Positions 3,586-60,546 of a DNA stretch of 64,000 bases are shown piece after piece. The stretch is from the NCBI GenBank assembly GCA_023229115.1, contig JALNZW010000006.1:2523-66522 (forward strand), read 5' to 3'. This DNA is from Patescibacteria group bacterium (GTDB lineage: Bacteria > Patescibacteriota > Patescibacteriia > Patescibacteriales > UBA12465). A program made the position numbers and the translations under genes. Under the pieces are notes generated by a model. That model had not been told where the DNA came from. It was given only the letters and a program-made list of their open reading frames with translations, and did no database searches. Position 1 is the stretch's first letter, and each line of letters starts with the position of its first letter.

Positions 3586-4749
3586 TTAAGGATTTACACT
3601 TTTAATAGCTGCTAGTATTCCGGCCAAACTTCCACCATTTTCAACGATAATGGATTTATCAGTAGCCTTAAGCGCTTTCCACTGTTCCATTTTCATTAAG
3701 TACTCAAGAACCTCCTTGGGAGAAGCTTTGGTTGATACTAACTTCTCAACTTGTATCCTAAGCGCTTCGGAAGTTATTTCTAAAGATTCGGACTGAGCCT
3801 TAGCCTCAATAATAGCCACCTCCTTTTTATTTTCAGCGACCTTAATGTCCATTTTTGACTTATACTCAGTTCTGTTAATCTCAATTTCCTCATCAGATAA
3901 AACAATATCCAAAATATTAACCGAGCAAATATCAACTCCGTAATGCTTGATGATTGAATTAAACACACAGATATCCTCTTTTTTTAATTTAGCCAAATCA
4001 ATCTTGTCACCTCTAGCAGTGTCAGAATCCATACTACCCAAAGTTAAGCGCAAAAGAGACATTAGCATTTCTCTAATGTTAGAGTCAGCATTTTCTTCCT
4101 TAGCATATCTTTTAATACTATTGTCGAGAATTAAACTTTTTAGTTCACGGGTAACAAGGCCCAATGATCTAATTTCAGTTTTTTTCTTATCCAACATAGA
4201 AGCTAAGATAGAAACAATGTCTTCGGTGTCTGAGTCGCCAGCTCTTAAATCTGTCCCAAGCTCTGGGCCAGAATACAGATGAGCTACATACATAGCCTCA
4301 ACTGGCGTAGAAATACCGTTTTTAAAATCAACTTTATTTTCAGGACTTCCGTCAAATATAATCCCGTTAAAATCTCCCAAAAAAATAACTTGAGAAAAAG
4401 TAACGAATTTAAAAAACGGAAAAACCAGATACCAACCAGCATGAAGAGGTTTTTCAGGATAAACCCCGTTAATCTCTACTAAGGCTGCATGTTTTTCGGG
4501 AACTGAAAAGAAGCGACGACGCTCCATGTCCTTACAATCTGGATAGGCATTATAAAAAAACATGTACGCTTTAACCAAGGCATAAATTGAAATTCCTAAA
4601 AAAACCAAGAACCCCAAAAGCAAAGCAACAAAAAAGTTAATTCCAATTACGAGCAAAAAAACGCTCATCAGAATCATACTCACAAAAAAACTCACTAAAA
4701 AGAACAAAGTCCATTGTCCTTTTCCGATAAACCTTTCCGATAGTTTCAT
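3586..4749 (-). CDS. SPFH/Band-7 (stomatin/prohibitin-like) membrane protein
   Basis: N-terminal TM hairpin, then the SPFH-like start VPEKHAALVEINGVY...HAGWYLVFPFF. The C-terminal part is coiled-coil-like: AENKKEVAIIEAKAQSESLEITSEALRIQVEKL. SD AAGGAGA lies 7 nt before the ATG. Confidence 0.5.
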   Translation of the reverse strand: MKLSERFIGKGQWTLFFLVSFFVSMILMSVFLLVIGINFFVALLLGFLVFLGISIYALVKAYMFFYNAYPDCKDMERRRFFSVPEKHAALVEINGVYPEKPLHAGWYLVFPFFKFVTFSQVIFLGDFNGIIFDGSPENKVDFKNGISTPVEAMYVAHLYSGPELGTDLRAGDSDTEDIVSILASMLDKKKTEIRSLGLVTRELKSLILDNSIKRYAKEENADSNIREMLMSLLRLTLGSMDSDTARGDKIDLAKLKKEDICVFNSIIKHYGVDICSVNILDIVLSDEEIEINRTEYKSKMDIKVAENKKEVAIIEAKAQSESLEITSEALRIQVEKLVSTKASPKEVLEYLMKMEQWKALKATDKSIIVENGGSLAGILAAIKSVNP

Positions 4750-9062: not shown

Positions 9063-11084
9063 ATGTCTGATAAAGAAAAAGCAAAATCAAATTATGGCGC
9101 TGATGCTATCACCGTCTTAGAGGGTTTGGACCCAGTTAGAAAGAGGCCTGGTATGTATATTGGCTCAACTTCAGCTACTGGTTTGCACCATCTTATTTGG
9201 GAGGTGGTTGATAACTGTATTGACGAGGCTATGGGTGGTTATGCCACCGAAATAAGCGTTACTCTTTTAGAAAATGGAATGGTAAAAGTAGCTGATGATG
9301 GCCGTGGTATTCCAGTTGAAAAACACAAGGTTACTGGCCTATCGGCTCTAGAAACAGTTTTAACAAAATTACATGCTGGAGGAAAATTCGGTGGAGATGG
9401 CTATAAAGTTTCTGGTGGTTTACATGGCGTGGGTGTTTCAGTTGTTAATGCTTTAAGCGAATATTTAAAAGCTGAAATTCACCGTGATGGAAAAATCTGG
9501 GAACAAGAATATAAAATTGGCAAACCATTAAAAAATATTAAAGCCGTAGGAACAACTAAAAAAACAGGCACAACCATCACCTTTAAACCAGATGCCACTA
9601 TTTTTACTGAAACCGAATTTAATTGGGGTAAAATCCTTGATCGTTTACGCCAACAATCATACTTAACTAAAGGAATTTTTCTTAATGTTATTGATGAAAG
9701 ACCAGGACACAGTTTTAAAAAATATAGATTTTATTTTGAAGGTGGGGTTAAATCGTATATTAAATCATTGCATCGTCAAAAAAATGTTAAACACGAAACT
9801 GTTTTTTATGTTGAAAAAGAGGTAAACAGTTGTAAAATTGAAGTAGCACTACAATATAACGATGAATACAATGAAACAACCCTGCCCTTCGCTAACAATA
9901 TTTACAATATCGATGGAGGGACTCATTTAGTTGGTTTTAAAACTGCTTTAACCAGAACTCTAAATTCTTATGCCAGAAATAAAAATTTATTAAAAGAAAA
10001 AGATGAAAATTTAACCGGAGATGATGTCCGCGAGGGTTTAACCGCTATAATTAGTGTTAAAATTCCTGAACCTCAATTTGAAGGACAAACAAAAGGCAAA
10101 CTAGGAAATGCTGAAATAAAAACCTACGTAGAACAAGTTTTTGGTGATTCTTTCTTAACTTTTTTAGAAGAAAACCCAAAAGAAGCCGAAAGTATTATTG
10201 GCAAATGTATCATTTCAGCTCAAGCTAGATTAGCGGCTAGAACTGCTAGAGCAAATATTCTTAGAAAAGGAGCTTTAGAGGGAATGACTCTTCCTGGGAA
10301 ATTAGCCGACTGCTCCAGCAACAAAGCTGAGGAATGCGAACTATACATAGTAGAGGGAGATTCAGCCGGTGGTAGTGCTAAGCAAGGAAGAGATAGAAAA
10401 TTTCAAGCTATACTGCCACTGAGAGGAAAAATATTAAATGTCGAAAGAGCCAGATTAGATAAAATGTTGGTTAATATTGAAATTAAAAATTTAGTAATCG
10501 CTCTAGGAACAAATATTGGAGATCAGTTAAGTATGGAAAAATTAAGATACCATCGAGTTATTATTATGACTGATGCTGACGTTGATGGATCACATATCAG
10601 AACTTTATTACTTACTTTATTCTTTAGATATTTTAATCAATTAATCACTGATGGTCATATCTATATTGCTCAACCACCATTATATCAAATAAAAAAAGGT
10701 AGCACCTCTAAATATGCCTATACCGAAGAAGAGAAATTGGAAATAATTAAAGAATTCGGAGGAGATATTAAAGACGAAAATATTGAAGAAGGTGAAGAAA
10801 ATAAAGAAGGAACAGAAGATGACAAAAAAAATGAAAAAGAAATTGATGACAAGAAAAAAGCTAAAAAATTATTTATTCAAAGATATAAAGGTTTAGGAGA
10901 AATGAACCCAGAACAACTATGGGAAACAACCATGAATCCTAAAACAAGAATAGTAAAAAGAGTCACACTGGAAGATGCTGCTCAAGCTGATATAATCTTT
11001 GACATGTTAATGGGCGACGATGCCTCCAAGAGAAAAACATTTATTCAAACTCATGCTAAGAATGTTTCTAATTTAGATATTTAA
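9063..11084 (+). CDS. gyrB: DNA gyrase subunit B
   Basis: GHKL ATPase motifs (LEGLDPVRKRPGMYIG, GLHHLIWEVVDNCIDE), Toprim EGDSAGG and PLRGKILNVE. A K/E/D-rich low-complexity insert lies near the C-terminus. Confidence 0.95.
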   Translation: MSDKEKAKSNYGADAITVLEGLDPVRKRPGMYIGSTSATGLHHLIWEVVDNCIDEAMGGYATEISVTLLENGMVKVADDGRGIPVEKHKVTGLSALETVLTKLHAGGKFGGDGYKVSGGLHGVGVSVVNALSEYLKAEIHRDGKIWEQEYKIGKPLKNIKAVGTTKKTGTTITFKPDATIFTETEFNWGKILDRLRQQSYLTKGIFLNVIDERPGHSFKKYRFYFEGGVKSYIKSLHRQKNVKHETVFYVEKEVNSCKIEVALQYNDEYNETTLPFANNIYNIDGGTHLVGFKTALTRTLNSYARNKNLLKEKDENLTGDDVREGLTAIISVKIPEPQFEGQTKGKLGNAEIKTYVEQVFGDSFLTFLEENPKEAESIIGKCIISAQARLAARTARANILRKGALEGMTLPGKLADCSSNKAEECELYIVEGDSAGGSAKQGRDRKFQAILPLRGKILNVERARLDKMLVNIEIKNLVIALGTNIGDQLSMEKLRYHRVIIMTDADVDGSHIRTLLLTLFFRYFNQLITDGHIYIAQPPLYQIKKGSTSKYAYTEEEKLEIIKEFGGDIKDENIEEGEENKEGTEDDKKNEKEIDDKKKAKKLFIQRYKGLGEMNPEQLWETTMNPKTRIVKRVTLEDAAQADIIFDMLMGDDASKRKTFIQTHAKNVSNLDI

Positions 11085-11087
11085 TTT

Positions 11088-11528
11088 ATGTCAAACTATA
11101 TAATATTATTAACACCCTTTATTGCAGCTGCTGTTGCTCAAGCACTAAAAATTTCTTTAAGCAAAAGAAATAAAATGAAAATCAGGGACTTTTTTGCCTT
11201 TACTTATGCTGGGATGCCATCTGGTCATAGCGCCTTTGTAGTATCTTTAGTTGTTATTATGGGGCTAGTTGAGGGCCTAGACTCACCTTTATTTGCTCTA
11301 TCAATAGCTTTTGCGGTTATTGTTATTAACGATGCCTTGAAATTAAGAATGTATCTAGGACAACAAGGAGAGACTATAAATATTCTAGTTGAAGATCTAG
11401 ATGAAGATCAATTCTTGGATCAAAAATATCCAAAAATGAAAGAAAGAATTGGTCACACCAAAAGAGAAGTTTTAGCTGGATCTTGTTTGGGGATAGCTAT
11501 TGCCATTATAATCTATTTCTTATTTTAG
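11088..11528 (+). CDS. Divergent PAP2 family membrane protein (DUF212-like)
   Basis: MPSGHSAFVVSL motif within a 146-aa protein with about 4 TM helices. Confidence 0.6.
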   Translation: MSNYIILLTPFIAAAVAQALKISLSKRNKMKIRDFFAFTYAGMPSGHSAFVVSLVVIMGLVEGLDSPLFALSIAFAVIVINDALKLRMYLGQQGETINILVEDLDEDQFLDQKYPKMKERIGHTKREVLAGSCLGIAIAIIIYFLF

Positions 11529-11546
11529 TAATTAAAAACGAAATGC

Positions 11547-11579
11547 AAAAAAAAGAGACTCATAATGAGTCTCTTTTTT
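11547..11579. terminator. Bidirectional rho-independent terminator
   Basis: Perfect 9-bp stem agagactca (11554-11562) / tgagtctct (11566-11574) with a 3-nt loop. An A-run precedes it and a T-run follows. It lies between convergent genes. Confidence 0.75.
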
Positions 11580-11636
11580 ATTATAATTTCAGGAAGTTAT
11601 ATAAAAATAATTTTAATTTTTAGCACATACAAACAG

Positions 11637-12110
11637 TTATTTGGATTTAAAATTTTTTGGACCAAAACCTAGTGGTAAAAGTTCGCTAATCTTAGCTATA
11701 ATAATTTTATCCATTTTAGTATTAGACATAATAACTTCAATATCAATTTCAGAAACCTGAGAAGCTTCAAAAATCATTTGTCGACAAGAACCACAAGGAG
11801 AGATAGGATCTAAGACTGCCTTTTCAGAATTCTTACCAATCACGGCTATTTTTAAAACTTTCTTTATTCCATTTGCTCTAGCGCTAGTCAGGGCTGAACA
11901 CTCAGCACAGATTGTATTGCCATAAGCAGAATTTTCAACATTAGTTCCAACAAAAATTTTATTACCATCACCTAAAACAGCCGCTCCGACATAAAATTTA
12001 GAGTAAGGATTGTAAGAATTATTCATTACTTCAAAGGCTCTTTTTAAAAGATTTTGATCAATTTTGTTTAACTTTTGGAAATTAATTTTTTTCATAATAA
12101 TATTATACAA
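11637..12110 (-). CDS. cdd: Cytidine deaminase
   Basis: Zinc motifs CAECSAL and PCGSCRQ. It overlaps the upstream ORF by 8 nt. Confidence 0.88.
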   Translation of the reverse strand: MYNIIMKKINFQKLNKIDQNLLKRAFEVMNNSYNPYSKFYVGAAVLGDGNKIFVGTNVENSAYGNTICAECSALTSARANGIKKVLKIAVIGKNSEKAVLDPISPCGSCRQMIFEASQVSEIDIEVIMSNTKMDKIIIAKISELLPLGFGPKNFKSK

Positions 12111-12957
12111 AACTCTCCCCTGTCATTTCAGCTGGAACATCAAAATCCATTATTTTTAAAATAGTGGGCGCGATATCAGAAAAATCTCCTTGAGAATTAA
12201 TCAGACTTAAATCATTATTAGGAGCTTCTTCTAATCCTATTGTTTTACCTTGAAAATCTTTACCAATAATCAAAAGAGGAACTGGATTGTTTGTTTTTTT
12301 AAGATTAGGAATTTTGGTATTAATATTAAAAACATCTTCAGCAATTCCAAAAGATCCCAAAACAATCATTACTCCATTTTCCTCTAAAACAGCTTGAGAT
12401 ATTTTTTTTAAAGCTAATGATGTTTTTTCAACCTTAGAAATGGTTTCTTCAAAATTACCAGCCAAAGCTGAGTAAGCAATTTCACTTAAATTAGAAAAAA
12501 TAAAATTATATTTATTTGATTTTATAGCACTAATAGTTTTTCTAATTATTTTTTCATCAGAACTAAAAAATAAATCCCAAAAATCATTTTTATTTCTGAC
12601 AATTGACCATTCTTCGTTACTCAATCTTTCCTCTTGTTGATTGAAAAAACAAGAAACCAGGGGAAAATTTTCACTGTCAGCTATTTTTATTTGGCTCAAA
12701 CTATTTTGATCCAATATTTTAGAAACAGAATTCTTTAAAAAAGAAGACGGCAAATTATTACCTGAACCCAAGACCTCATAATTCAAACTACTCTCAGTAT
12801 AACAAGGACTAATAATCGTAGATGGATAATTAGATACTAAATTTTTAAAATCATCAATCTTAGCCTTTCTGATGGCATTATTTTCCATAGTAGGAGCTAC
12901 GCCCCAACCATTTATAGTTAAAAATACTAAAAGTTTTTCCTTCGAAGTTTCCCCCAT
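12103..12957 (-). CDS. Truncated, probably non-catalytic homologue of cofactor-independent phosphoglycerate mutase (iPGM-like)
   Basis: The ends align to iPGM: KLLVFLTINGWG...NYP, IKIADSENFPLVSCFF, NPVPLLII, DIAPTILKIMDFDVPAEMTGESF. It is only 284 aa against about 510. The positions of the nucleophile Ser and the metal ligands are substituted (see finding). Confidence 0.6.
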   Translation of the reverse strand: MGETSKEKLLVFLTINGWGVAPTMENNAIRKAKIDDFKNLVSNYPSTIISPCYTESSLNYEVLGSGNNLPSSFLKNSVSKILDQNSLSQIKIADSENFPLVSCFFNQQEERLSNEEWSIVRNKNDFWDLFFSSDEKIIRKTISAIKSNKYNFIFSNLSEIAYSALAGNFEETISKVEKTSLALKKISQAVLEENGVMIVLGSFGIAEDVFNINTKIPNLKKTNNPVPLLIIGKDFQGKTIGLEEAPNNDLSLINSQGDFSDIAPTILKIMDFDVPAEMTGESFV

Positions 12958-12970
12958 AGATATGTAGATA

Positions 12971-14230
12971 TTAAGATAAATTTTCTTCTATTTCCAACAA
13001 CCTGTTATACTTAGCTAAACGCTCACCGCGAGAAAGAGAACCTGATTTAATAAATTCAGCCCCAACAGCCACAGATAAATCAGCAATAAAATCATCTGTT
13101 GTTTCCCCACTACGATGAGAAACCATTAAACTGTAATTATTACTTTTGGCCAATTTAACAGTTTTCATTGTTTCACTAACGGTGCCTATTTGATTTAATT
13201 TTATTAAAACAGAATTGGCAACTCCATTTTTAATACCTTTCTTTAATCTTTCTTCGTTAGTAACAAACAAATCGTCCCCGATAAGCATTATTTTATCTCC
13301 CAGTTCTTTAGTTAAAATTTTCCAATTATCCCAATCATCTTCACCCAAACCATCTTCAATAGAAATCATATGATATTTTTTAACCCACTCATGATATAGA
13401 GTAATTAAATCATAAGCTGAAAGTTTGGTGCCATCCAGTGATATTTCATATTTATTTTCTTTTTCATTGTAAAGTTCAGAAGAACCAACGTCAGTTCCCA
13501 AAAAAACATCCACTCCTGGTTGATAACCAACTCTTTCTGAGGCTAAAATAATATATTCAATAGCAGCAATGGTTGAGCTAATATTAGGAGCATAACCACC
13601 TTCATTGCCAACATCAGTGTCAAGACCGGCTTCTTTTAAAACCCTTCCTAACTCATGAAAAATTTCAGAACCCATTCTCAATTTTTCAGAAAATTTAGGA
13701 ATATTTTTATTTGGCAAAATCATAAATTCCTGAAAATCCAAATTAGTATCAGCATGTTTTCCACCATTAAAAATATTAAAAGAAGGTGTTGGTAATTTAT
13801 AATTTTTATCAAAATTAAAAGTCTCTGCTAAATATTCATATAATTCTTTCCCCTTAGCCAAGGCAGCTACTCTAGCAACGGCCATAGAAACACCCAAAAT
13901 AGCGTTGGCTCCTAGCTTCTTTTTATTTTTAGTTCCATCTAGAGTAATCATTTTTTTGTCAATTTTTTCTTGCTCAAAAACAGAATATCCTTTAAGACTT
14001 TTAGCTATAATAGTATTAACATTTTTAACAGCCTTTAAAACGCCCTTACCATTGTACCTTTTTTTATCACCATCTCTAAGCTCATAAGCTTCGTGAACTC
14101 CAGTTGAAGCACCAGAAGGAACACTAGCCTTGGTCCACATTTTATTTTCTAAAACAACCTTAACCTCTACCGTTGGATTACCACGAGAGTCTAAAATTTC
14201 TCGAGCTATTATTTCTTTTATTTTTGACAT
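12971..14230 (-). CDS. eno: Enolase
   Basis: SRGNPTVEV, SHRSGETTD and IKxNQIGT motifs. Length 419 aa. Confidence 0.95.
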   Translation of the reverse strand: MSKIKEIIAREILDSRGNPTVEVKVVLENKMWTKASVPSGASTGVHEAYELRDGDKKRYNGKGVLKAVKNVNTIIAKSLKGYSVFEQEKIDKKMITLDGTKNKKKLGANAILGVSMAVARVAALAKGKELYEYLAETFNFDKNYKLPTPSFNIFNGGKHADTNLDFQEFMILPNKNIPKFSEKLRMGSEIFHELGRVLKEAGLDTDVGNEGGYAPNISSTIAAIEYIILASERVGYQPGVDVFLGTDVGSSELYNEKENKYEISLDGTKLSAYDLITLYHEWVKKYHMISIEDGLGEDDWDNWKILTKELGDKIMLIGDDLFVTNEERLKKGIKNGVANSVLIKLNQIGTVSETMKTVKLAKSNNYSLMVSHRSGETTDDFIADLSVAVGAEFIKSGSLSRGERLAKYNRLLEIEENLS

Positions 14231-14321: not shown

Positions 14322-15497
14322 TTAATTAATTCCAGGCATTTTTTCTCCAGACAAATAATCAAGCATAGCTCCGCCACCAGTAGACACCCAATCCATATAA
14401 GAGGACATACCAGACAAATTTAAAGCTTCAACGGTTTCTCCACCACCAACAACACCAAAAGCGCTCCCCCTAGCATGAGTTGCGATTTGACTGGCGATCA
14501 TTACTGTTCCCTTTTTAAAATTACTATCTTCAAACTTCCCCATTGGACCATTCCAAACAACAGTTCTAGCTTTTTTAATATATTTAGAAAACAAACTAAT
14601 AGTTTCTGGCCCGATATCGTATATAAAATCATTATCACTTACTTCACTCACACTTTTTATTTTCTTAATCATTCGTCCGGTTGAATCCTTAAACCCAACA
14701 ACAACATCAATTGGCAAAATTATTTTTTTAGAATTTAAATAAGTTTTTACTATTTTATCAGAACCATCATCAAAAAGAGATTTTCCGATATTGAAACCCT
14801 TAGCCTTTAAAAAATTATTAACTAAAGCCCCCCCTAAAAGGATATAAGAAGATTTATCATAAAGCTTCTTAATTATTGGCGCCTTACTAGCTATCTTGGC
14901 CCCGCCCATAACCAAAACTAATGGCTTTTTGGGTTTAATAATTTTTTCTAAATTTTCTAACTCTTTATTTAAAAGAAAACCAGCAAAAGAGGGTTTATTT
15001 CTTCTAACAGCTGAAACCGAAGAATTAGTTCGATGAGACACTGCAAAGGCATCATTAACATAAACATCGGCCAAGCTAGCTAACGATTTTCCCAAACGTA
15101 AACAATCGCGACCTTCACCATCAAAAAATCTAATGTTATCTAATAAAAATATTTTTTGCCCATTTTTTGATTTCGTATTTATTTCTTTTTTAATATCAAC
15201 AAATTTAGAATATTTATCATAAGGCAAAAAATCAATCTTTCGAGCTAAAATTTTAGAAAGATAAAGAGCAATCGGTTTTAAAGAAAACTTTTTATCAAAA
15301 CCTTCTTTGGGTTGTCCCAAGTGACTAAGCAAAATAACTTCACAATTATTATCTAATAAAAAAACTATTGTCTTTAGACTTTGTTTAATTTTAAAATCTT
15401 CCCTGATCTTTCCAGCTGAAATGGGAACATTAAAATCACAACGCAATAAAACTCTTTTATTTTTTATTTTATTTTTATCCAATTTTTGAAGCTTCAT
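14322..15497 (-). CDS. pgk: Phosphoglycerate kinase
   Basis: RCDFNVP, NDAFAVSHR, VWNGPMGKFE and GGGAM motifs. Confidence 0.93.
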   Translation of the reverse strand: MKLQKLDKNKIKNKRVLLRCDFNVPISAGKIREDFKIKQSLKTIVFLLDNNCEVILLSHLGQPKEGFDKKFSLKPIALYLSKILARKIDFLPYDKYSKFVDIKKEINTKSKNGQKIFLLDNIRFFDGEGRDCLRLGKSLASLADVYVNDAFAVSHRTNSSVSAVRRNKPSFAGFLLNKELENLEKIIKPKKPLVLVMGGAKIASKAPIIKKLYDKSSYILLGGALVNNFLKAKGFNIGKSLFDDGSDKIVKTYLNSKKIILPIDVVVGFKDSTGRMIKKIKSVSEVSDNDFIYDIGPETISLFSKYIKKARTVVWNGPMGKFEDSNFKKGTVMIASQIATHARGSAFGVVGGGETVEALNLSGMSSYMDWVSTGGGAMLDYLSGEKMPGIN

Positions 15498-15520: not shown

Positions 15521-16645
15521 TTATTTTAAATCAATTTTAATTTCTGACAAAGCATCATTCCTTAAAATATAAAAAGTAAGCTTATCTCCAATAATAAAAT
15601 TATTCAAAACATCAAACAGATCATTATTGGAGTCAATTTTATACTCATTAACTCTAGTAATTATATCCCCCGTTTTAAGACCAGCTTGTTCGGCCAATCC
15701 ACCCTTTTTAACTGCTGATAAACCATTATTATACAACCAAGCACCTTCGGAGTAAAAATTATTATCAGGGCTAACAACATTTGAAAGACTAACATATTCT
15801 AATTCTAGTTTAAATTTAGCTATTTCCTTGTTTTTAAAAAAAGAAAATATTAAAGGCTTGAAATCACTAATCGGACGGACCTGCTTATCAGCTGAAACTA
15901 AAGCGACTAATTCTCCGCTTAAATCAAAAACAAAAGAATTAGCAAAAGAATCGTTAACTTCAGTTAAGGTTAATTCATTTTCAAAAATATCTAAAGATCT
16001 AGGGAAAGAAAAAGATCCCTTAGACAATAAATTACTTGGAGCTATTTCTCCTGCTAAATTATAAAGAAGCAAAGATTGACCAATCTTTAAATTAGAAAAA
16101 TTAAAGAAAGGTCTTACTGGTAAATTACTAGTATCTTTTATTTTTAAAAATAAAAATGAATGTTCTTCGGAATAAACAACATCCTCTATTTCATATATTT
16201 TTTTATCTTTCTTTGATATAACAACAAAAGATGATTTATCTTTTATCAAATTCTTGTCAAAAGTAGCTAGACCCAAAACATTAATTAAAACCCAACCATC
16301 GCTACTAACAACAACTCCACTTAAAATAGCCTCATCAAAAGAATAAAAATCACTAGCACTTTTACTTTTCTTAAAAATACCGACAACAGCCTCACTAAAA
16401 TAATTTTGATTTTCCTCTATTTTTAAATCTTGATTAATAATAACCTTTTTAGCATCTTGAATAACAAAGTTGGAACGATTATAGTCCCAAGAACTTAAAT
16501 CTAATTCTGGTGAAAAAATCTGTTGATTATAAAGAGCTCCATAAAAATAGAAAATAGCTCCACCCAAAAAACCCAAAAGAAGAGAGGCTATTAAAAATAA
16601 AACAATTTTATTATTTTTATTATTTTTTTTATCTTTCTTATCCAT
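15521..16645 (-). CDS. Membrane-anchored HtrA/DegP-like protein with a C-terminal PDZ domain; the protease triad appears degenerate
   Basis: N-terminal TM. The trypsin-fold-like core is SGVVVSSDGWVLINVLG ... FLFLKIK ... ANSFVFDLSGELVAL. The PDZ segment is GLAEQAGLKTGDIITRVNEYKI. Confidence 0.55.
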   Translation of the reverse strand: MDKKDKKNNKNNKIVLFLIASLLLGFLGGAIFYFYGALYNQQIFSPELDLSSWDYNRSNFVIQDAKKVIINQDLKIEENQNYFSEAVVGIFKKSKSASDFYSFDEAILSGVVVSSDGWVLINVLGLATFDKNLIKDKSSFVVISKKDKKIYEIEDVVYSEEHSFLFLKIKDTSNLPVRPFFNFSNLKIGQSLLLYNLAGEIAPSNLLSKGSFSFPRSLDIFENELTLTEVNDSFANSFVFDLSGELVALVSADKQVRPISDFKPLIFSFFKNKEIAKFKLELEYVSLSNVVSPDNNFYSEGAWLYNNGLSAVKKGGLAEQAGLKTGDIITRVNEYKIDSNNDLFDVLNNFIIGDKLTFYILRNDALSEIKIDLK

Positions 16646-28619: not shown

Positions 28620-29771
28620 TTATCTTTTCGACCAATGCTTGGTCCAGATCATTCTTTTGGTTTTTGCCAATAATGATTCTGCTTTTATTTTTTCTTCTTT
28701 AGTGGTTGAATTCTCTAAGGACCTAATTGATCTAATAAATTCATCAACACCTCTTTCTATTTCGTCAGGATTCCAGGCACGAGGCCCGAAATTATGTTTA
28801 AAATCATTGTCGCTAGCCCACCAAAAAGTGCAACTAGCCAAACCCCTAACAAAATGCCAACGAGCCCAATAACTATTTTTATCTCTTTTATGTCTTTCAA
28901 TAGTATTATAAGCCAAATCAGCTAACTCCCATAATTTTAAATGAATTTTATTTTTTTGGCTATACCACAAATGATAAGGCTCCTTTTTGGCCAAATCTTT
29001 AAGACTGGACTCCCAATTACTTTTTCTAACAGATATTGAAATTGTTTTTTTGTTTTTTATATAATCTGAAATTAAAACAGTCTCAATTTTTTTATTTTTT
29101 AAAATATTTTCAAATTTACCCCTAGGGTCATTATGTCTGAGTCCATATAATTCTCCATCCGTAGCGCTAACAATAATGTCTTTACTATTATCTTCTCCTG
29201 ACAAATGATTAGTTATTTTATCTGGAACATAACAATTAGAAAATTCTCGGGATCTAAAAACAACCTTAAGGTCACTTTTTTTATCTTTATAAACCTGAGA
29301 ATAATCTACCTTTCCAGAAGAATTAAAAGATATTTCGTCTAAAATAATCCAAGAATAACCCATTTTTTTTACAATAGATGCCACTTCGGGACTATAAGCC
29401 ATTTCAGGAAAGAAAAAGCCTTTTAATTTAGCTTTGGGAAAATTTTTTTTAATTATAATTTCATTTTCTTTTATTTGCCTAACAACCTCCTTCTTCTTAA
29501 TTAATGGCAATAGAGGGTGATAAGCCGCTGAACCAACTAACTCAATTTGACCCCTTTCTATTAGTAAATTTATTTTTTTTATTAAATCAACATAGCCCAG
29601 CTCTAACATTCTTGAAACCAAGCAAGCCGAAATATTTAAAGTAAATTTTATTTTTTTATTTTTTTTTAAAGCATCAAAAATCCGCTCATAGCTCAAATCG
29701 TTAGCCTCTTTTATTCTATAAGGATCTGAATTAGCTGGTTGATATAAATGAAGAAAATTTATCCACAACAT
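28620..29771 (-). CDS. Glycoside hydrolase family 57 protein
   Basis: LHLYQP start, GQIELVGSAAYHPLLPLI, candidate nucleophile region FFPEMAYS and acid/base region TDGELYG. Confidence 0.7.
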   Translation of the reverse strand: MLWINFLHLYQPANSDPYRIKEANDLSYERIFDALKKNKKIKFTLNISACLVSRMLELGYVDLIKKINLLIERGQIELVGSAAYHPLLPLIKKKEVVRQIKENEIIIKKNFPKAKLKGFFFPEMAYSPEVASIVKKMGYSWIILDEISFNSSGKVDYSQVYKDKKSDLKVVFRSREFSNCYVPDKITNHLSGEDNSKDIIVSATDGELYGLRHNDPRGKFENILKNKKIETVLISDYIKNKKTISISVRKSNWESSLKDLAKKEPYHLWYSQKNKIHLKLWELADLAYNTIERHKRDKNSYWARWHFVRGLASCTFWWASDNDFKHNFGPRAWNPDEIERGVDEFIRSIRSLENSTTKEEKIKAESLLAKTKRMIWTKHWSKR

Positions 29772-29780
29772 CTTATTTTT

Positions 29781-31253
29781 TTAATTTTTAATTCTAATAG
29801 CTTTTCTATAAAGCTTAATGTATTTTTGAGCTGGTATTTTCCAGCTACTAGACTGTGACATAGCTCTTTCAATAATTTCATTCCAAACATTTTTATATTT
29901 ATAAGTTTCCAGGGCCCTTATTATAGCCCAAAAAAAAGAAAATTCATCTTCATACTTAAAAGTAAAACCTGTTCCCGTTTTAGAATTAGGATTAAAATTA
30001 CTAACAGTATCATAAAGACCACCAGTTTCTCTAACAATAGGGATGCAACCATAACGCATAGCAATCATCTGGTTTATGCCACATGGCTCATAATAAGAAG
30101 GCAGAACAAACAAATCAGACCCAGCATAAACCAAAGTTTCTATACTTTGATTTTCTTTAAATGGTTTCCAAATTATTTTTTTAGGAAATTTTTTATTAAG
30201 ATTATTTATTTCTTTGATATATTCTTGATTACCGTCACCCATAAAAATTATTTGCACATCAAATCTTAATAGATAAGGCAATAACTTCAAGATTACATCA
30301 AAACCTTTTTGATGAGTTATTCGAGAAGTAGAACAGATAATAGGAACGTTCGGATTAATCGCGAACCCCATCTTTTTTTGTAAGAATTTTTTATTTTCCA
30401 ACTTTAATTTATGAGAATTTATATCAAAATTACAAAAAAGACCTTGGTCGTTTTTAGGATTATAAGAATCATAGTCAATGCCATTGACTATCCCAAATAA
30501 ATGAGCACTTCTGTTTTTTAAAATACGATTAAGGTCTTGTCCAAACTTCTTGGTCATTATTTCTTCTCGATATTTTTCACTAACAGTATTAATGATGTCA
30601 GCGGACATAATTGCTCTTTTAGCAAAGTTAATATTGACAATATCTGGATCACTAATTAAAGGAATTTTTTTTCGACCATAATCTTTTTTATCTAAAGGAA
30701 CTGAAAACCAATTTTTCCCTAATTGAAAAGCCAAATTATGAATGGTAAAAATAGTTTTAGTTTTTGATAAAATTTTTGTATACCTAGACTTGTTCTTTAT
30801 AAAATAAGGTATTAAACCAGAGTGCCAATCATGGCATTGAATAATATCAGGACTAAAATCTAATAAATTTAATAATTTTAAGGCGGCAACATTAAAAGTC
30901 AAAAATCTAATATTTTCCTTATCTGAGCCATAAACTTTTTTATGTTTAGAAAAATATTTTTTAATCTCCACAAAGTAAACGGGTAAACCTCCATTCAACT
31001 TACCTTCCCAAAAACTAGCCTTAATATTGTTTTCAGAATCAATAATTAAATTAATGTCCTTAAAAATCATTTTTAGGTCATACTCGTCTTTGTCTATTAA
31101 TTTACCATAAAGAGGTGTTATAATCCTAACATCATAACCAAGTTTAAATAAAGACTCTGGTAAACTGCGAGCAACATCCGCTAGGCCACCTGTCTTAGAA
31201 AAAGGGGCTACTTCAGCTGAAACATGAACTATTTTAATTTTTTTACTATTCAT
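29781..31253 (-). CDS. glgA: Glycogen/starch synthase (GT5)
   Basis: KIVHVSAEVAPFSKTGGLADV at the N-terminus and PSYYEPCGINQM near the C-terminus. Confidence 0.9.
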   Translation of the reverse strand: MNSKKIKIVHVSAEVAPFSKTGGLADVARSLPESLFKLGYDVRIITPLYGKLIDKDEYDLKMIFKDINLIIDSENNIKASFWEGKLNGGLPVYFVEIKKYFSKHKKVYGSDKENIRFLTFNVAALKLLNLLDFSPDIIQCHDWHSGLIPYFIKNKSRYTKILSKTKTIFTIHNLAFQLGKNWFSVPLDKKDYGRKKIPLISDPDIVNINFAKRAIMSADIINTVSEKYREEIMTKKFGQDLNRILKNRSAHLFGIVNGIDYDSYNPKNDQGLFCNFDINSHKLKLENKKFLQKKMGFAINPNVPIICSTSRITHQKGFDVILKLLPYLLRFDVQIIFMGDGNQEYIKEINNLNKKFPKKIIWKPFKENQSIETLVYAGSDLFVLPSYYEPCGINQMIAMRYGCIPIVRETGGLYDTVSNFNPNSKTGTGFTFKYEDEFSFFWAIIRALETYKYKNVWNEIIERAMSQSSSWKIPAQKYIKLYRKAIRIKN

Positions 31254-52484: not shown

Positions 52485-53360
52485 TTAAATATTTTTTGAA
52501 ATATCTTTAATAAAATTAGCCAAATCATCTTTAATTTCACCATCTTTTAAGCCAAGTTTAATAGTAGCTTTGATAAAATTAAACTTATTCCCAGTATCTA
52601 GCCACTCTCCTTCTATCTTCTTGCCATACAAAGGGCGATTTTTTTCAAGCATTATATCAAAAGCATCAGCTAACCTGATCTCCCCCGATTTACCACTTTT
52701 CATGTTTCCCAAAACTTTAAAAACCTCAGGAGTGATAACATACAAACCAACAGCGGCCAAATTAGAAGGAGCTTCTTCTATTTTTGGTTTTTCAACAAAT
52801 TTTTTTATTTCATAACTACCATTTCCCAAATCAAGACCATCAATGACGCCAAACTTATCTACTTTATTTCTAGCAACCTCAGACAAGCCAATTATTGGAT
52901 CTTGGTAGTAATTATACAAATCAATAATCTGTTTAACTGGAGAAACGGGAGCGTCATACAAAGTATCCCCAAACATTATTAAAACTGGTTCATCAAAAAT
53001 TAAATGAGAAGCACAATTTATAGCATGACCATCTCCTTTTGGAATAGATTGTCTAACGTAAGAAAATTTAGCCAAAGAATCTATTTGTTTAATTTTAGCA
53101 ACTAAATCTAATTTATTTTTTTCAACTAAAGTATGTTCCAATTCAAAAGAATAATCAAAATGATCTTCAATAGCTCTTTTGCCTCGACCGGTTACAAAAA
53201 TTATTTCTTCAATTCCGGCAGCAACCGCATCCTCAACCATATATTGAATAACTGGTTTATCTACTACTGGCAACATTTCTTTAGGTTGAGCCTTGGTAGC
53301 TGGTAAAAATCTGGTTCCAAAACCAGCAACTGGCATAATCGCCTTTCTTACTTTTTTCAT
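52485..53360 (-). CDS. galU: UTP--glucose-1-phosphate uridylyltransferase
   Basis: KAIMPVAGFGTRFLPATKAQPKEMLPVVDKPVIQY. Confidence 0.92.
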   Translation of the reverse strand: MKKVRKAIMPVAGFGTRFLPATKAQPKEMLPVVDKPVIQYMVEDAVAAGIEEIIFVTGRGKRAIEDHFDYSFELEHTLVEKNKLDLVAKIKQIDSLAKFSYVRQSIPKGDGHAINCASHLIFDEPVLIMFGDTLYDAPVSPVKQIIDLYNYYQDPIIGLSEVARNKVDKFGVIDGLDLGNGSYEIKKFVEKPKIEEAPSNLAAVGLYVITPEVFKVLGNMKSGKSGEIRLADAFDIMLEKNRPLYGKKIEGEWLDTGNKFNFIKATIKLGLKDGEIKDDLANFIKDISKNI

Positions 53361-59298: not shown

Positions 59299-60546
59299 TT
59301 ATTTTTCAGCAAACATGATAACGTTAGGAATATTTCTACCTGGTCCATACATATATTCATCATGATAAAATAAAGCGGCTGAATAACCACCATCAAGATT
59401 AATAGCATAGTCCATTTCCATAATCTTTAAAATTTCAGCTAAATCAGAAACTGTAGCACTGCGGGCAACTATTAAATAAACAAAACCCTTACCACCAAAA
59501 TCATCTTTTTTATAAGCTATCGCATTGCGAGTAGCTTTAACATCACGCTGTTTATCATCAACCTCCCAATCAATTAATAAATTTTGACCATTTTCTATTA
59601 AGCGAGGCTTATTACCAATAGCTGCTTGAAGTTCAACGCCATAAGTGGTTTCAAAATTTTCAACACTAACAAAATCACGACTATCCTTAAAATAATGAAA
59701 TTCATTATTTTTATCAAAAGCCATAATTGGGCCGGTAGTTGGATACTTTAATTGATTATCGTTTATAAAAATTTTTAACTTAGAATTATAAACCGGAAAA
59801 AAATAATAATTTAATTTTTCAGCACTAGTATCGAAATAAGAACCATTAATAGCAGCAAAAACTTTGTCATTTTCAAAATAATCAAGTAATTCTTTGGCTT
59901 GACAACGGCCTGTGCAATTTTGCGAATTAGCAGTGTCAGTGATAATTTTCAAATTAGGGTTATCTAGATTAATTTCAATAACATCTAAAAAATAATCTTG
60001 ATTGTTGTAATTAACAACTTTTTTAAAATCATAGGAGCTATACTGATTAATACTTTCATCTAAGGTATTTTTATGAACATAGGCTAAATTTTTGCGACTA
60101 ATTCCTAGGCCTAATTCTCTCATAATTCTAAAAGCATCGTCAGGACGACCTAAATAATGTTTTTTGTAGGTTAGTGGATTTATATACCAAGCCTCGCCAT
60201 TACGTTCAACTTGTAAAATAATTTGACCAGCCAATCTTTTAGCTAAATTTATATCACCTAAATATTCCTCACCCTCTTCTTTAGATGAATCAATTTTAGC
60301 AAAATCTCTTTCAAAAATACCGAGCCCAAGTTCTCTCATAATAGAAAAGGCATTATGAGGACGACCCAAATAATATCTTTTATTATCTTTTGGATATACA
60401 TACCAAGCTTCACCATTACGCTCAACATCAATAAGAATTCTACCAGTCAATCTCTCGCCCAAAGTTTGAGCTTTTAAATTTTTAAAAGGGCTAGCAATAA
60501 AAAACAAAATAAAAACTAAAAATGTTAAATAAATATATTTTTTCAT
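59299..60546 (-). CDS. Secreted phosphodiester glycosidase (NAGPA/DUF2233-like) protein with two N-terminal repeats of about 50 aa
   Basis: Signal peptide. Repeats are RLTGRILIDVERNGEAWYVYPKDNKRYYLGRPHNAFSIMRELGLGI and RLAGQIILQVERNGEAWYINPLTYKKHYLGRPDDAFRIMRELGLGI. The C-terminal domain has AINGSYFD and AINLDGGYS. Confidence 0.65.
   Translation of the reverse strand: MKKYIYLTFLVFILFFIASPFKNLKAQTLGERLTGRILIDVERNGEAWYVYPKDNKRYYLGRPHNAFSIMRELGLGIFERDFAKIDSSKEEGEEYLGDINLAKRLAGQIILQVERNGEAWYINPLTYKKHYLGRPDDAFRIMRELGLGISRKNLAYVHKNTLDESINQYSSYDFKKVVNYNNQDYFLDVIEINLDNPNLKIITDTANSQNCTGRCQAKELLDYFENDKVFAAINGSYFDTSAEKLNYYFFPVYNSKLKIFINDNQLKYPTTGPIMAFDKNNEFHYFKDSRDFVSVENFETTYGVELQAAIGNKPRLIENGQNLLIDWEVDDKQRDVKATRNAIAYKKDDFGGKGFVYLIVARSATVSDLAEILKIMEMDYAINLDGGYSAALFYHDEYMYGPGRNIPNVIMFAEK

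Follow-up and report, generated by a model that had tools for sequence, protein, structure and literature searches.

A putatively non-catalytic, single-domain relic of cofactor-independent phosphoglycerate mutase encoded behind enolase in Patescibacteria

Cofactor-independent phosphoglycerate mutase (iPGM or GpmI; TIGR01307, K15633, structure 1EJJ) is a monomer in which two hinge peptides connect a phosphatase domain, with its binuclear metal site and Ser nucleophile, to a phosphotransferase domain, and its catalysis runs via a phosphoserine intermediate and needs domain closure (PMC5382265). The phosphopentomutase DeoB and the archaeal-type mutase ApgM have the same core fold, with their cap domain inserted at the same topological point. 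Here we describe a short iPGM-like open reading frame (ORF) of 284 amino acids (aa) that directly follows the enolase gene eno in a 64-kb stretch of DNA, hereafter the window, from a Patescibacteria group bacterium (contig JALNZW010000006.1, positions 2,523 to 66,522). Its product resembles iPGM in the fold of both halves of the phosphatase domain and in its pgk/eno neighbourhood, but is without the transferase domain, the six metal ligands, Lys336, His66 and a conserved Ser, and scores 100 bits where 331 are required. Metal ligands, nucleophile and cap domain are likewise what DeoB and ApgM keep and the short form does not. Duplication beside an active copy, loss of catalytic residues and purifying selection are features that it has in common with pseudoenzymes in general; unlike the usual pseudoenzymes, it also lost a whole domain, and in most lineages the dead copy has outlasted its presumed partner, the active paralogue having vanished from the locus. 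In our searches of the literature we came across no account of an iPGM that is truncated or dead. The family to which the short form belongs is a widespread, mis-annotated and selection-maintained relic, not a new type of system.

The ORF and the parts of its product are laid out as follows, with iPGM residues numbered as in the Geobacillus stearothermophilus enzyme (1EJJ) here and throughout.

12103 to 12957, minus strand: short iPGM-like ORF (284 aa plus stop), predicted stand-alone phosphatase domain of the alkaline-phosphatase fold with catalytic residues absent
12766 to 12936, minus strand: aa 8–64, N-terminal segment of the phosphatase domain, with the first beta strand (N16), the NNAIRKA helix and helix 56–65 (S56, Y60)
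12778 to 12780, minus strand: codon of Tyr60, which stands for the invariant His66 of the GNSEVGH motif
12727 to 12765, minus strand: aa 65–77, variable loop between the former hinge points in place of iPGM_N, with lower predicted local distance difference test (pLDDT) values
12106 to 12726, minus strand: aa 78–284, C-terminal segment of the phosphatase domain (approximately 1EJJ 314–509), with N97, A161, L165, S202, F203 and K221
12202 to 12246, minus strand: aa 238–252 (KTIGLEEAPNNDLSL), 15-residue insertion before DIAPTIL, common to the second intact copy (par2) of tandem iPGM pairs and absent from the first copy

The short protein matched the Pfam family Metalloenzyme (PF01676) over residues 12–272 (E = 1.4e-22, 80.9 bits versus a gathering threshold of 24.3) and had no Pfam match to iPGM_N (PF06415), so that only one of the two domains of the iPGM architecture was found. 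Its scores against the NCBIfam iPGM equivalogs TIGR01307 (100 bits, cutoff 330.65) and NF003897 (98.5 bits, cutoff 862) stayed below the cutoffs, whereas eno (594 versus 300 bits), tpi and cdd of the window passed theirs. Phosphopentomutase and ApgM were represented by distant fold matches only, with no NCBIfam or Pfam PhosphMutase match for the short protein. In a phmmer search against the PDB, residues 69–283 aligned to 1EJJ 309–508, and the family profile aligned to both ends of 1EJJ (3–49, i-E 2e-7; 314–509, 1e-39); aa 8–54 correspond to 1EJJ 3–49, and the Ser62-loop region past aa 54 is too diverged for HMMER. The best PDB matches of an AlphaFold2 model built on 54 homologues (pLDDT 90.8, predicted template modelling score 0.91) were iPGM structures over both phosphatase-domain halves (5vpu, query-normalised template modelling score 0.84), followed by weaker Foldseek matches to sulfatases, MCR-1 and LtaS and to 2zkt, 3m7v and 4n7t, mutases of the DeoB/ApgM group. 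Profile alignment and model agree on homology to both ends of iPGM, which the original prediction had recognised by eye, together with the absence of a middle domain of about 230 aa. That domain (approximately 1EJJ 77–310, about 230 residues) is replaced by a loop of about 13 residues; Pfam gives no iPGM_N and the alignment lacks the block. By sequence and modelled fold, the short protein is a member of the Metalloenzyme/alkaline-phosphatase superfamily that descended from iPGM.

All catalytic positions that could be placed in residue-level alignments are substituted in the window protein, as had been proposed. This holds for the six metal ligands (D12 by N16, D403 by A161, H407 by L165, D444 by S202, H445 by F203 and H462 by K221), for Lys336 (N97) and for His66 (Tyr60). 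The details of the earlier assignment changed at two positions. The nucleophile Ser was not exchanged for Tyr: Tyr60 falls at His66, whereas the Ser62 column holds S56, located at the N-terminus of the modelled helix 56–65. Relatives have D, L, V, I or N in this column, which is therefore unconserved and leaves the family with no conserved nucleophile. The exchange of Asp12 for Asn was confirmed for the window protein (N16) but is not family-wide, because most members keep Asp and Asn is confined to the subclade of the window. Nor is the EAPNNDLSL stretch new to the short form; it belongs to an insertion that came down from intact Patescibacteria iPGMs of one subtype.

In a joint alignment, at least 124 short forms in Patescibacteria combined Tyr at the His66 column with degenerate ligand columns; Tyr, one of the criteria by which this set was selected, is present in all 124 degenerate short forms. 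Searching with the short-family profile also retrieved 53 full-length iPGMs of Patescibacteria, of which 51 had the full signature D-S-H-K-D-H-D-H-H. Among 74 non-redundant short forms there was no column with a conserved basic residue or nucleophile. Conserved columns of the short forms are almost all structural core positions common to intact iPGMs, with Tyr60 as the exception; Glu207 and, in the insertion, Asp249 and Ser251 are nearly invariant. At the former active site, polar residues gave way to aromatic or aliphatic ones (His66 to Tyr, the His after K336-Y-P to Leu100, Arg to Trp117, His445 to Phe/Tyr and His407 to Leu/Phe). Such changes are in keeping with the filling and stabilisation of an emptied metal pocket, or with a new binding role for the exposed face where the two domains once met. 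The predicted protein falls outside the iPGM family by every functional criterion tested (domains, ligands, Ser motif and equivalog score). Without a domain to bind phosphoglycerate, a metal site or a conserved nucleophile, catalysis of the iPGM type is implausible, and judging from these substitutions the short protein is almost certainly not the mutase that some pipelines name it.

With half the protein and the catalytic residues missing, the ORF might be taken for functionless, whether as a pseudogene in decay, as a fragment left by a frameshift or as an artefact of assembly. We consider this exceedingly improbable. The full-length iPGM hidden Markov model (HMM) matched only the short ORF among window ORFs of at least 50 aa, in line with the earlier observation of no adjacent fragments; since no other iPGM fragment turned up in any window frame, the short ORF is not a frameshifted gene, and no remnant of the transferase domain was detected in any of these frames. 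The reading frame is intact in 48 of 48 short-form loci, and an identical protein is encoded on 10 independent contigs from separate samples. Comparison of the window with relatives at 84% and 68% identity (Nei-Gojobori) gave ratios of non-synonymous to synonymous substitution rates (dN/dS) of 0.11–0.13 for the short gene (around 0.12 at dS values of 0.85–1.95), compared with 0.055–0.066 for eno and 0.057–0.107 for pgk in the same genome pairs. Constraint on the short gene is approximately two-fold weaker than on enolase, yet unmistakable. A word-index search retrieved about 54 clusters (272–303 aa, 34–92% identity), all from Patescibacteria, with full-length iPGMs next at about 30%; an exhaustive search of representatives recovered short forms of 255–325 aa, interleaved with full-length iPGMs, and showed that the family reaches 27% identity with its length conserved. 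Conservation of the short form across related genomes, which the original prediction had proposed as a check, is borne out by a monophyletic family, by synteny in 48 loci and by purifying selection. The short protein combines lost catalytic residues with purifying selection, as is characteristic of pseudoenzymes. A separately encoded transferase domain, i.e., a split enzyme, was also considered and rejected, as catalytic residues are lacking from the phosphatase half itself and the scans gave no fragment of iPGM_N.

Other members of the wider group deviate in different ways. Full-length proteins of the insertion type exist in which the His66 column is Tyr and the metal ligands have decayed (P0114, P0174, P0210, P0216, P0223), and there are other short forms whose metal ligands are all in place but whose Ser62 column has Cys (P0128, P0169, P0191, P0212). 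These may be further stages or independent offshoots.

In the window, the short gene is part of a minus-strand gene string (PDZ protein, pgk, eno, 284-aa ORF, cdd), whose other members and boundaries are the following.

12971 to 14230, minus strand: intact enolase gene (eno), 594 bits versus a cutoff of 300
14322 to 15497, minus strand: phosphoglycerate kinase gene (pgk), first glycolytic gene of the conserved pgk-eno-short block
15521 to 16645, minus strand: PDZ protein gene, heading the minus-strand gene string
11637 to 12095, minus strand: cytidine deaminase gene (cdd), 152 aa from ATG
11549 to 11579, no strand: terminator-like bidirectional hairpin, ending the ...pgk-eno-short-cdd transcription unit
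9063 to 11528, plus strand: gyrB and DUF212 gene, convergent to the operon; downstream boundary conserved in all three locus states described below

The placement of the ORF between eno and cdd proved correct, and the ORF is real; it begins 13 nt past the eno stop. The reported 8-nt overlap with cdd depends on a TTG start in a mechanical ORF call (11637–12110); gene calls on identical contigs and relatives place the cdd ATG at 12095, 7 nt past the stop of the short gene, which leaves no overlap.

We compared 48 short-form loci drawn from GTDB genomes, from JGI, ENA and Logan contigs and from a metagenome scan, for which alignment A5 served as query (A3 being too diverse). In all 48, pgk is followed by eno and then by the short gene, in three of them with an intact first iPGM copy before the short gene, which is always directly behind either eno or the intact copy. 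DUF212(-) and gyrB(-) lie downstream wherever the flank suffices, and 45 of the 48 loci (the window and 44 others) have the order pgk-eno-short-DUF212(-)-gyrB(-) with the short form alone. The distance between eno and the short gene ranges from a gap of 18 nt to an overlap of 31 nt. Only close relatives of the window (≥68% identity) have cdd 3' of the short gene, and a functional link to cdd (nucleoside salvage or a phosphopentomutase role) was rejected on this ground. Small ORFs after the short gene were dismissed as a conserved partner as well, since those of different loci are not homologous to each other.

The locus exists in three states. In the first, eno is followed by an intact copy 1 and an intact copy 2 (L027, L028, L029 and many metagenome loci); in the second by intact copy 1, the short form and DUF212 (L033, L037, L038); and in the third by the short form alone. 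Tandem intact pairs after eno were located at 4386–7611 of L027, 8339–11596 of L028 and 8442–11596 of L029, with further pairs in L042, L045, L053, L059, L061, L063, L065, L068–L070 and L115; two intact tandem iPGMs are a surprising redundancy for genomes of roughly 0.9 Mb. In L033 the intact copy and the short form overlap by 4 nt (ATGA). The short forms of the three second-state loci are half decayed, with the D403 column kept (S in L037), H407 kept and a basic residue (K or R) at K336.

Copy 2 (par2; e.g., 10001–11596 of both L028 and L029, P0161, P0268) occupies the same position before DUF212/gyrB as the short form, is its nearest group in the tree and also carries the 15-residue insertion (G-K-T-x-G...D-L-S-L-L) before DIAPTIL; it differs in having 525–535 aa and all catalytic residues (DSHKDHDHH), which the short form lost along with the middle domain. 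The insertion is present in every short form and in copy 2, and absent from tandem copy 1. In a neighbour-joining tree of 263 common columns, the short forms form one clade (200 of 200 bootstraps) nested among insertion-type Patescibacteria iPGMs, and the first-copy group has 75% support; neighbour-joining on divergent sequences may overstate such values. Because of the insertion that it has in common with the second copy, the short gene is placed by these comparisons as a domain-deleted descendant of copy 2 of a tandem iPGM pair; the window locus itself has lost the intact first copy. In the simplest history, an iPGM gene would have been duplicated in tandem, the active site of the second copy would then have decayed, its transferase domain would have been deleted, once, and the intact first copy would finally have been lost from the locus in most lineages, including that of the window.

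This origin beside an intact copy 1, with translational coupling (ATGA) in L033 and the same layout in L037 and L038, would also suit a subunit that assists or regulates a canonical iPGM, namely the copy 1 enzyme, whose intact gene would merely have been relocated within the genome. Docked on the transferase domain or hinge of its partner, the short domain would tune opening and closing, and the domain closure needed by iPGM indeed takes place across the face that is exposed in the short form (PMC5382265). However, although synteny of the whole block is nearly perfect, no further iPGM-like ORF was present in the flanks (up to 10 kb each) of 45 of the 48 loci, and selection still maintains the short form at loci that copy 1 has left. 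Moreover, none of the canonical Patescibacteria iPGMs among the best 120 of 8000 hits has its longest contig in common with a short form, a weak test as these were mostly proteins of the copy-2 type; contigs compared for such co-occurrence included ones of 302, 740 and 901 kb. We regard this explanation as possible but rather unlikely.

The original prediction had stated that no other phosphoglycerate mutase (PGM) is encoded in the window, and motif, HMM and Pfam scans agree with this. Motif and HMM scans of the 64 kb revealed no RHG-type motif of cofactor-dependent phosphoglycerate mutase (dPGM) and no second iPGM-like ORF, and in a Pfam scan of 30 further window ORFs, none of the domains His_Phos_1, PhosphMutase and Metalloenzyme turned up. 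Neither an alternative PGM nor a His_Phos_1 gene was present around the 48 short-form loci, for which flanks of up to 10 kb per side were covered, and 560 kb plus 216 kb of related loci contained no other PGM, RHG matches there being spurious (antisense or low-complexity ORFs). Altogether, no other PGM was detected near short forms within approximately 1.5 Mb of loci examined. At a tandem locus with both intact copies, a His_Phos_1 gene (dPGM/phosphatase family; 21509–21596 of L028, truncated where the locus ends) follows the iPGM pair about 10 kb further downstream. The genes pgk, eno and tpi are intact and constrained. As the short protein is almost certainly not the mutase, conversion of 3-phosphoglycerate (3PG) to 2-phosphoglycerate (2PG) is unexplained in this clade, and the step is best described as unaccounted for rather than shown to be missing.

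Intact and constrained pgk, eno and tpi without another PGM in the window or in the short-form flanks could mean that the short form is itself a new kind of enzyme, a single domain with a new active site that supplies the missing step as a metal-independent PGM or phosphatase, or that has an unrelated activity. Invariance or near-invariance of Tyr60 and Glu207 and the conservation of several Lys, Arg and Asn residues in the window subclade are in keeping with this idea. It is nevertheless improbable in our view, given that the entire substrate-binding transferase domain is gone, as are the metal ligands and Lys336, that the Ser62 column is unconserved and that, family-wide, no conserved basic or nucleophilic column is left to hold or transfer a phosphoryl group. 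Literature searches gave no precedent for a metal-free mutase of the alkaline-phosphatase fold.

We favour, as the probable explanation, a non-catalytic pseudoenzyme that acts by binding, with enolase or another glycolytic protein as its partner. Comparative data back the original view of a pseudoenzyme in an operon slot where a real PGM is expected, with catalytic death deduced from the substituted residues. The likeliest partners would be the enzymes of lower glycolysis encoded just upstream, which are probably co-expressed with the short protein, i.e., enolase and, in intermediate lineages, also the intact iPGM copy; enolase would be the most constant candidate. Binding would take place through the exposed face that formerly met the transferase domain.

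Several observations weigh against a role in protein binding alone. Close gene spacing suggests co-expression and does not prove a complex. Polar residues conserved in the window subclade (N26, N27, R30, K31, K38, K91, E207 and E244–D249) would fit a ligand site too, and an acidic residue at the D12 column in 82% of short forms together with Lys or Arg at the H462 column in the subclade of the window makes some binding of a small ligand possible. If there is no other PGM, a purely non-catalytic role also leaves intact pgk and eno disconnected. A more radical solution, which we consider a long shot, is that no conventional PGM exists in lineages with a lone short form, and that either the domain free of metal ligands interconverts 3PG and 2PG, alone or with enolase, through a mechanism not yet described, or glycolysis is broken between phosphoglycerate kinase and enolase. 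With such a broken pathway, enolase and the dead mutase would be retained for some other shared role, possibly a host-related one.

The window has approximately 30% G+C, and its genes are mostly on one strand (minus); among named organisms, Candidatus Falkowbacteria HGW-1 (68% identity) is closest to it. Most 2-kb bins have a negative GC skew, which is reversed in bins with plus-strand genes, and comparable strand disparity is reported in other genomes that belong to the candidate phyla radiation (CPR; PMC7143001). The gyrB product of the window has 673 aa and no intein, and that of a relative (11897–14707 of L003, 7045–9855 of L004) has 936 aa and contains an intein (Pfam Intein_splicing). 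A GH57 glycoside hydrolase, a starch/glycogen synthase (Glyco_transf_5) and a nucleotidyl transferase are encoded at 28620–31253 and 52485–53360, which suggests glycogen-type storage metabolism feeding the glycolytic genes of the window. The ORF at 59299–60546 (minus strand), which surfaced by chance in the dPGM motif scan, encodes copies of a repeated motif (...VERNGEAWY[VI].P......YYLG) approximately 70 residues apart.

Annotation of the short forms differs between databases: IMG calls several of them iPGM, NCBI lists them as hypothetical and UniProt has one as 'Metalloenzyme domain-containing protein' (the proteins at issue are P0009, P0024, P0028, P0032, P0047, P0256, P0262, P0167 and P0295). 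As a consequence of iPGM naming of the IMG type, reconstructions that count K15633 (KO/COG) may report a complete lower glycolysis that is absent. Conversely, a study of CPR genomes with HMM thresholds reported PGM as 'absent... possibly too divergent' (Jaffe et al. 2020, PMC7304191); its supplements contain no per-genome PGM table. Both outcomes, falsely complete glycolysis and PGM called absent, are probably due at least in part to the short family. The closed genomes of Patescibacterium danicum, cited for complete glycolysis, have one K15633 gene each, which may be of either length, and no gpmB (Table S9 of PMC11809585); a GTDB pattern scan for the short form gave no match in the genome of this organism.

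The locus provides a natural record, in very small genomes, of how a pseudoenzyme comes into being, with all stages, from duplication through active-site decay and domain deletion to loss of the active partner, sampled at one syntenic position. These CPR organisms are considered to obtain their energy mainly from glycolysis, and their route from 3PG to 2PG is now testable: it may involve an unrecognised PGM, a split pathway, or a relic with an unexpected function.

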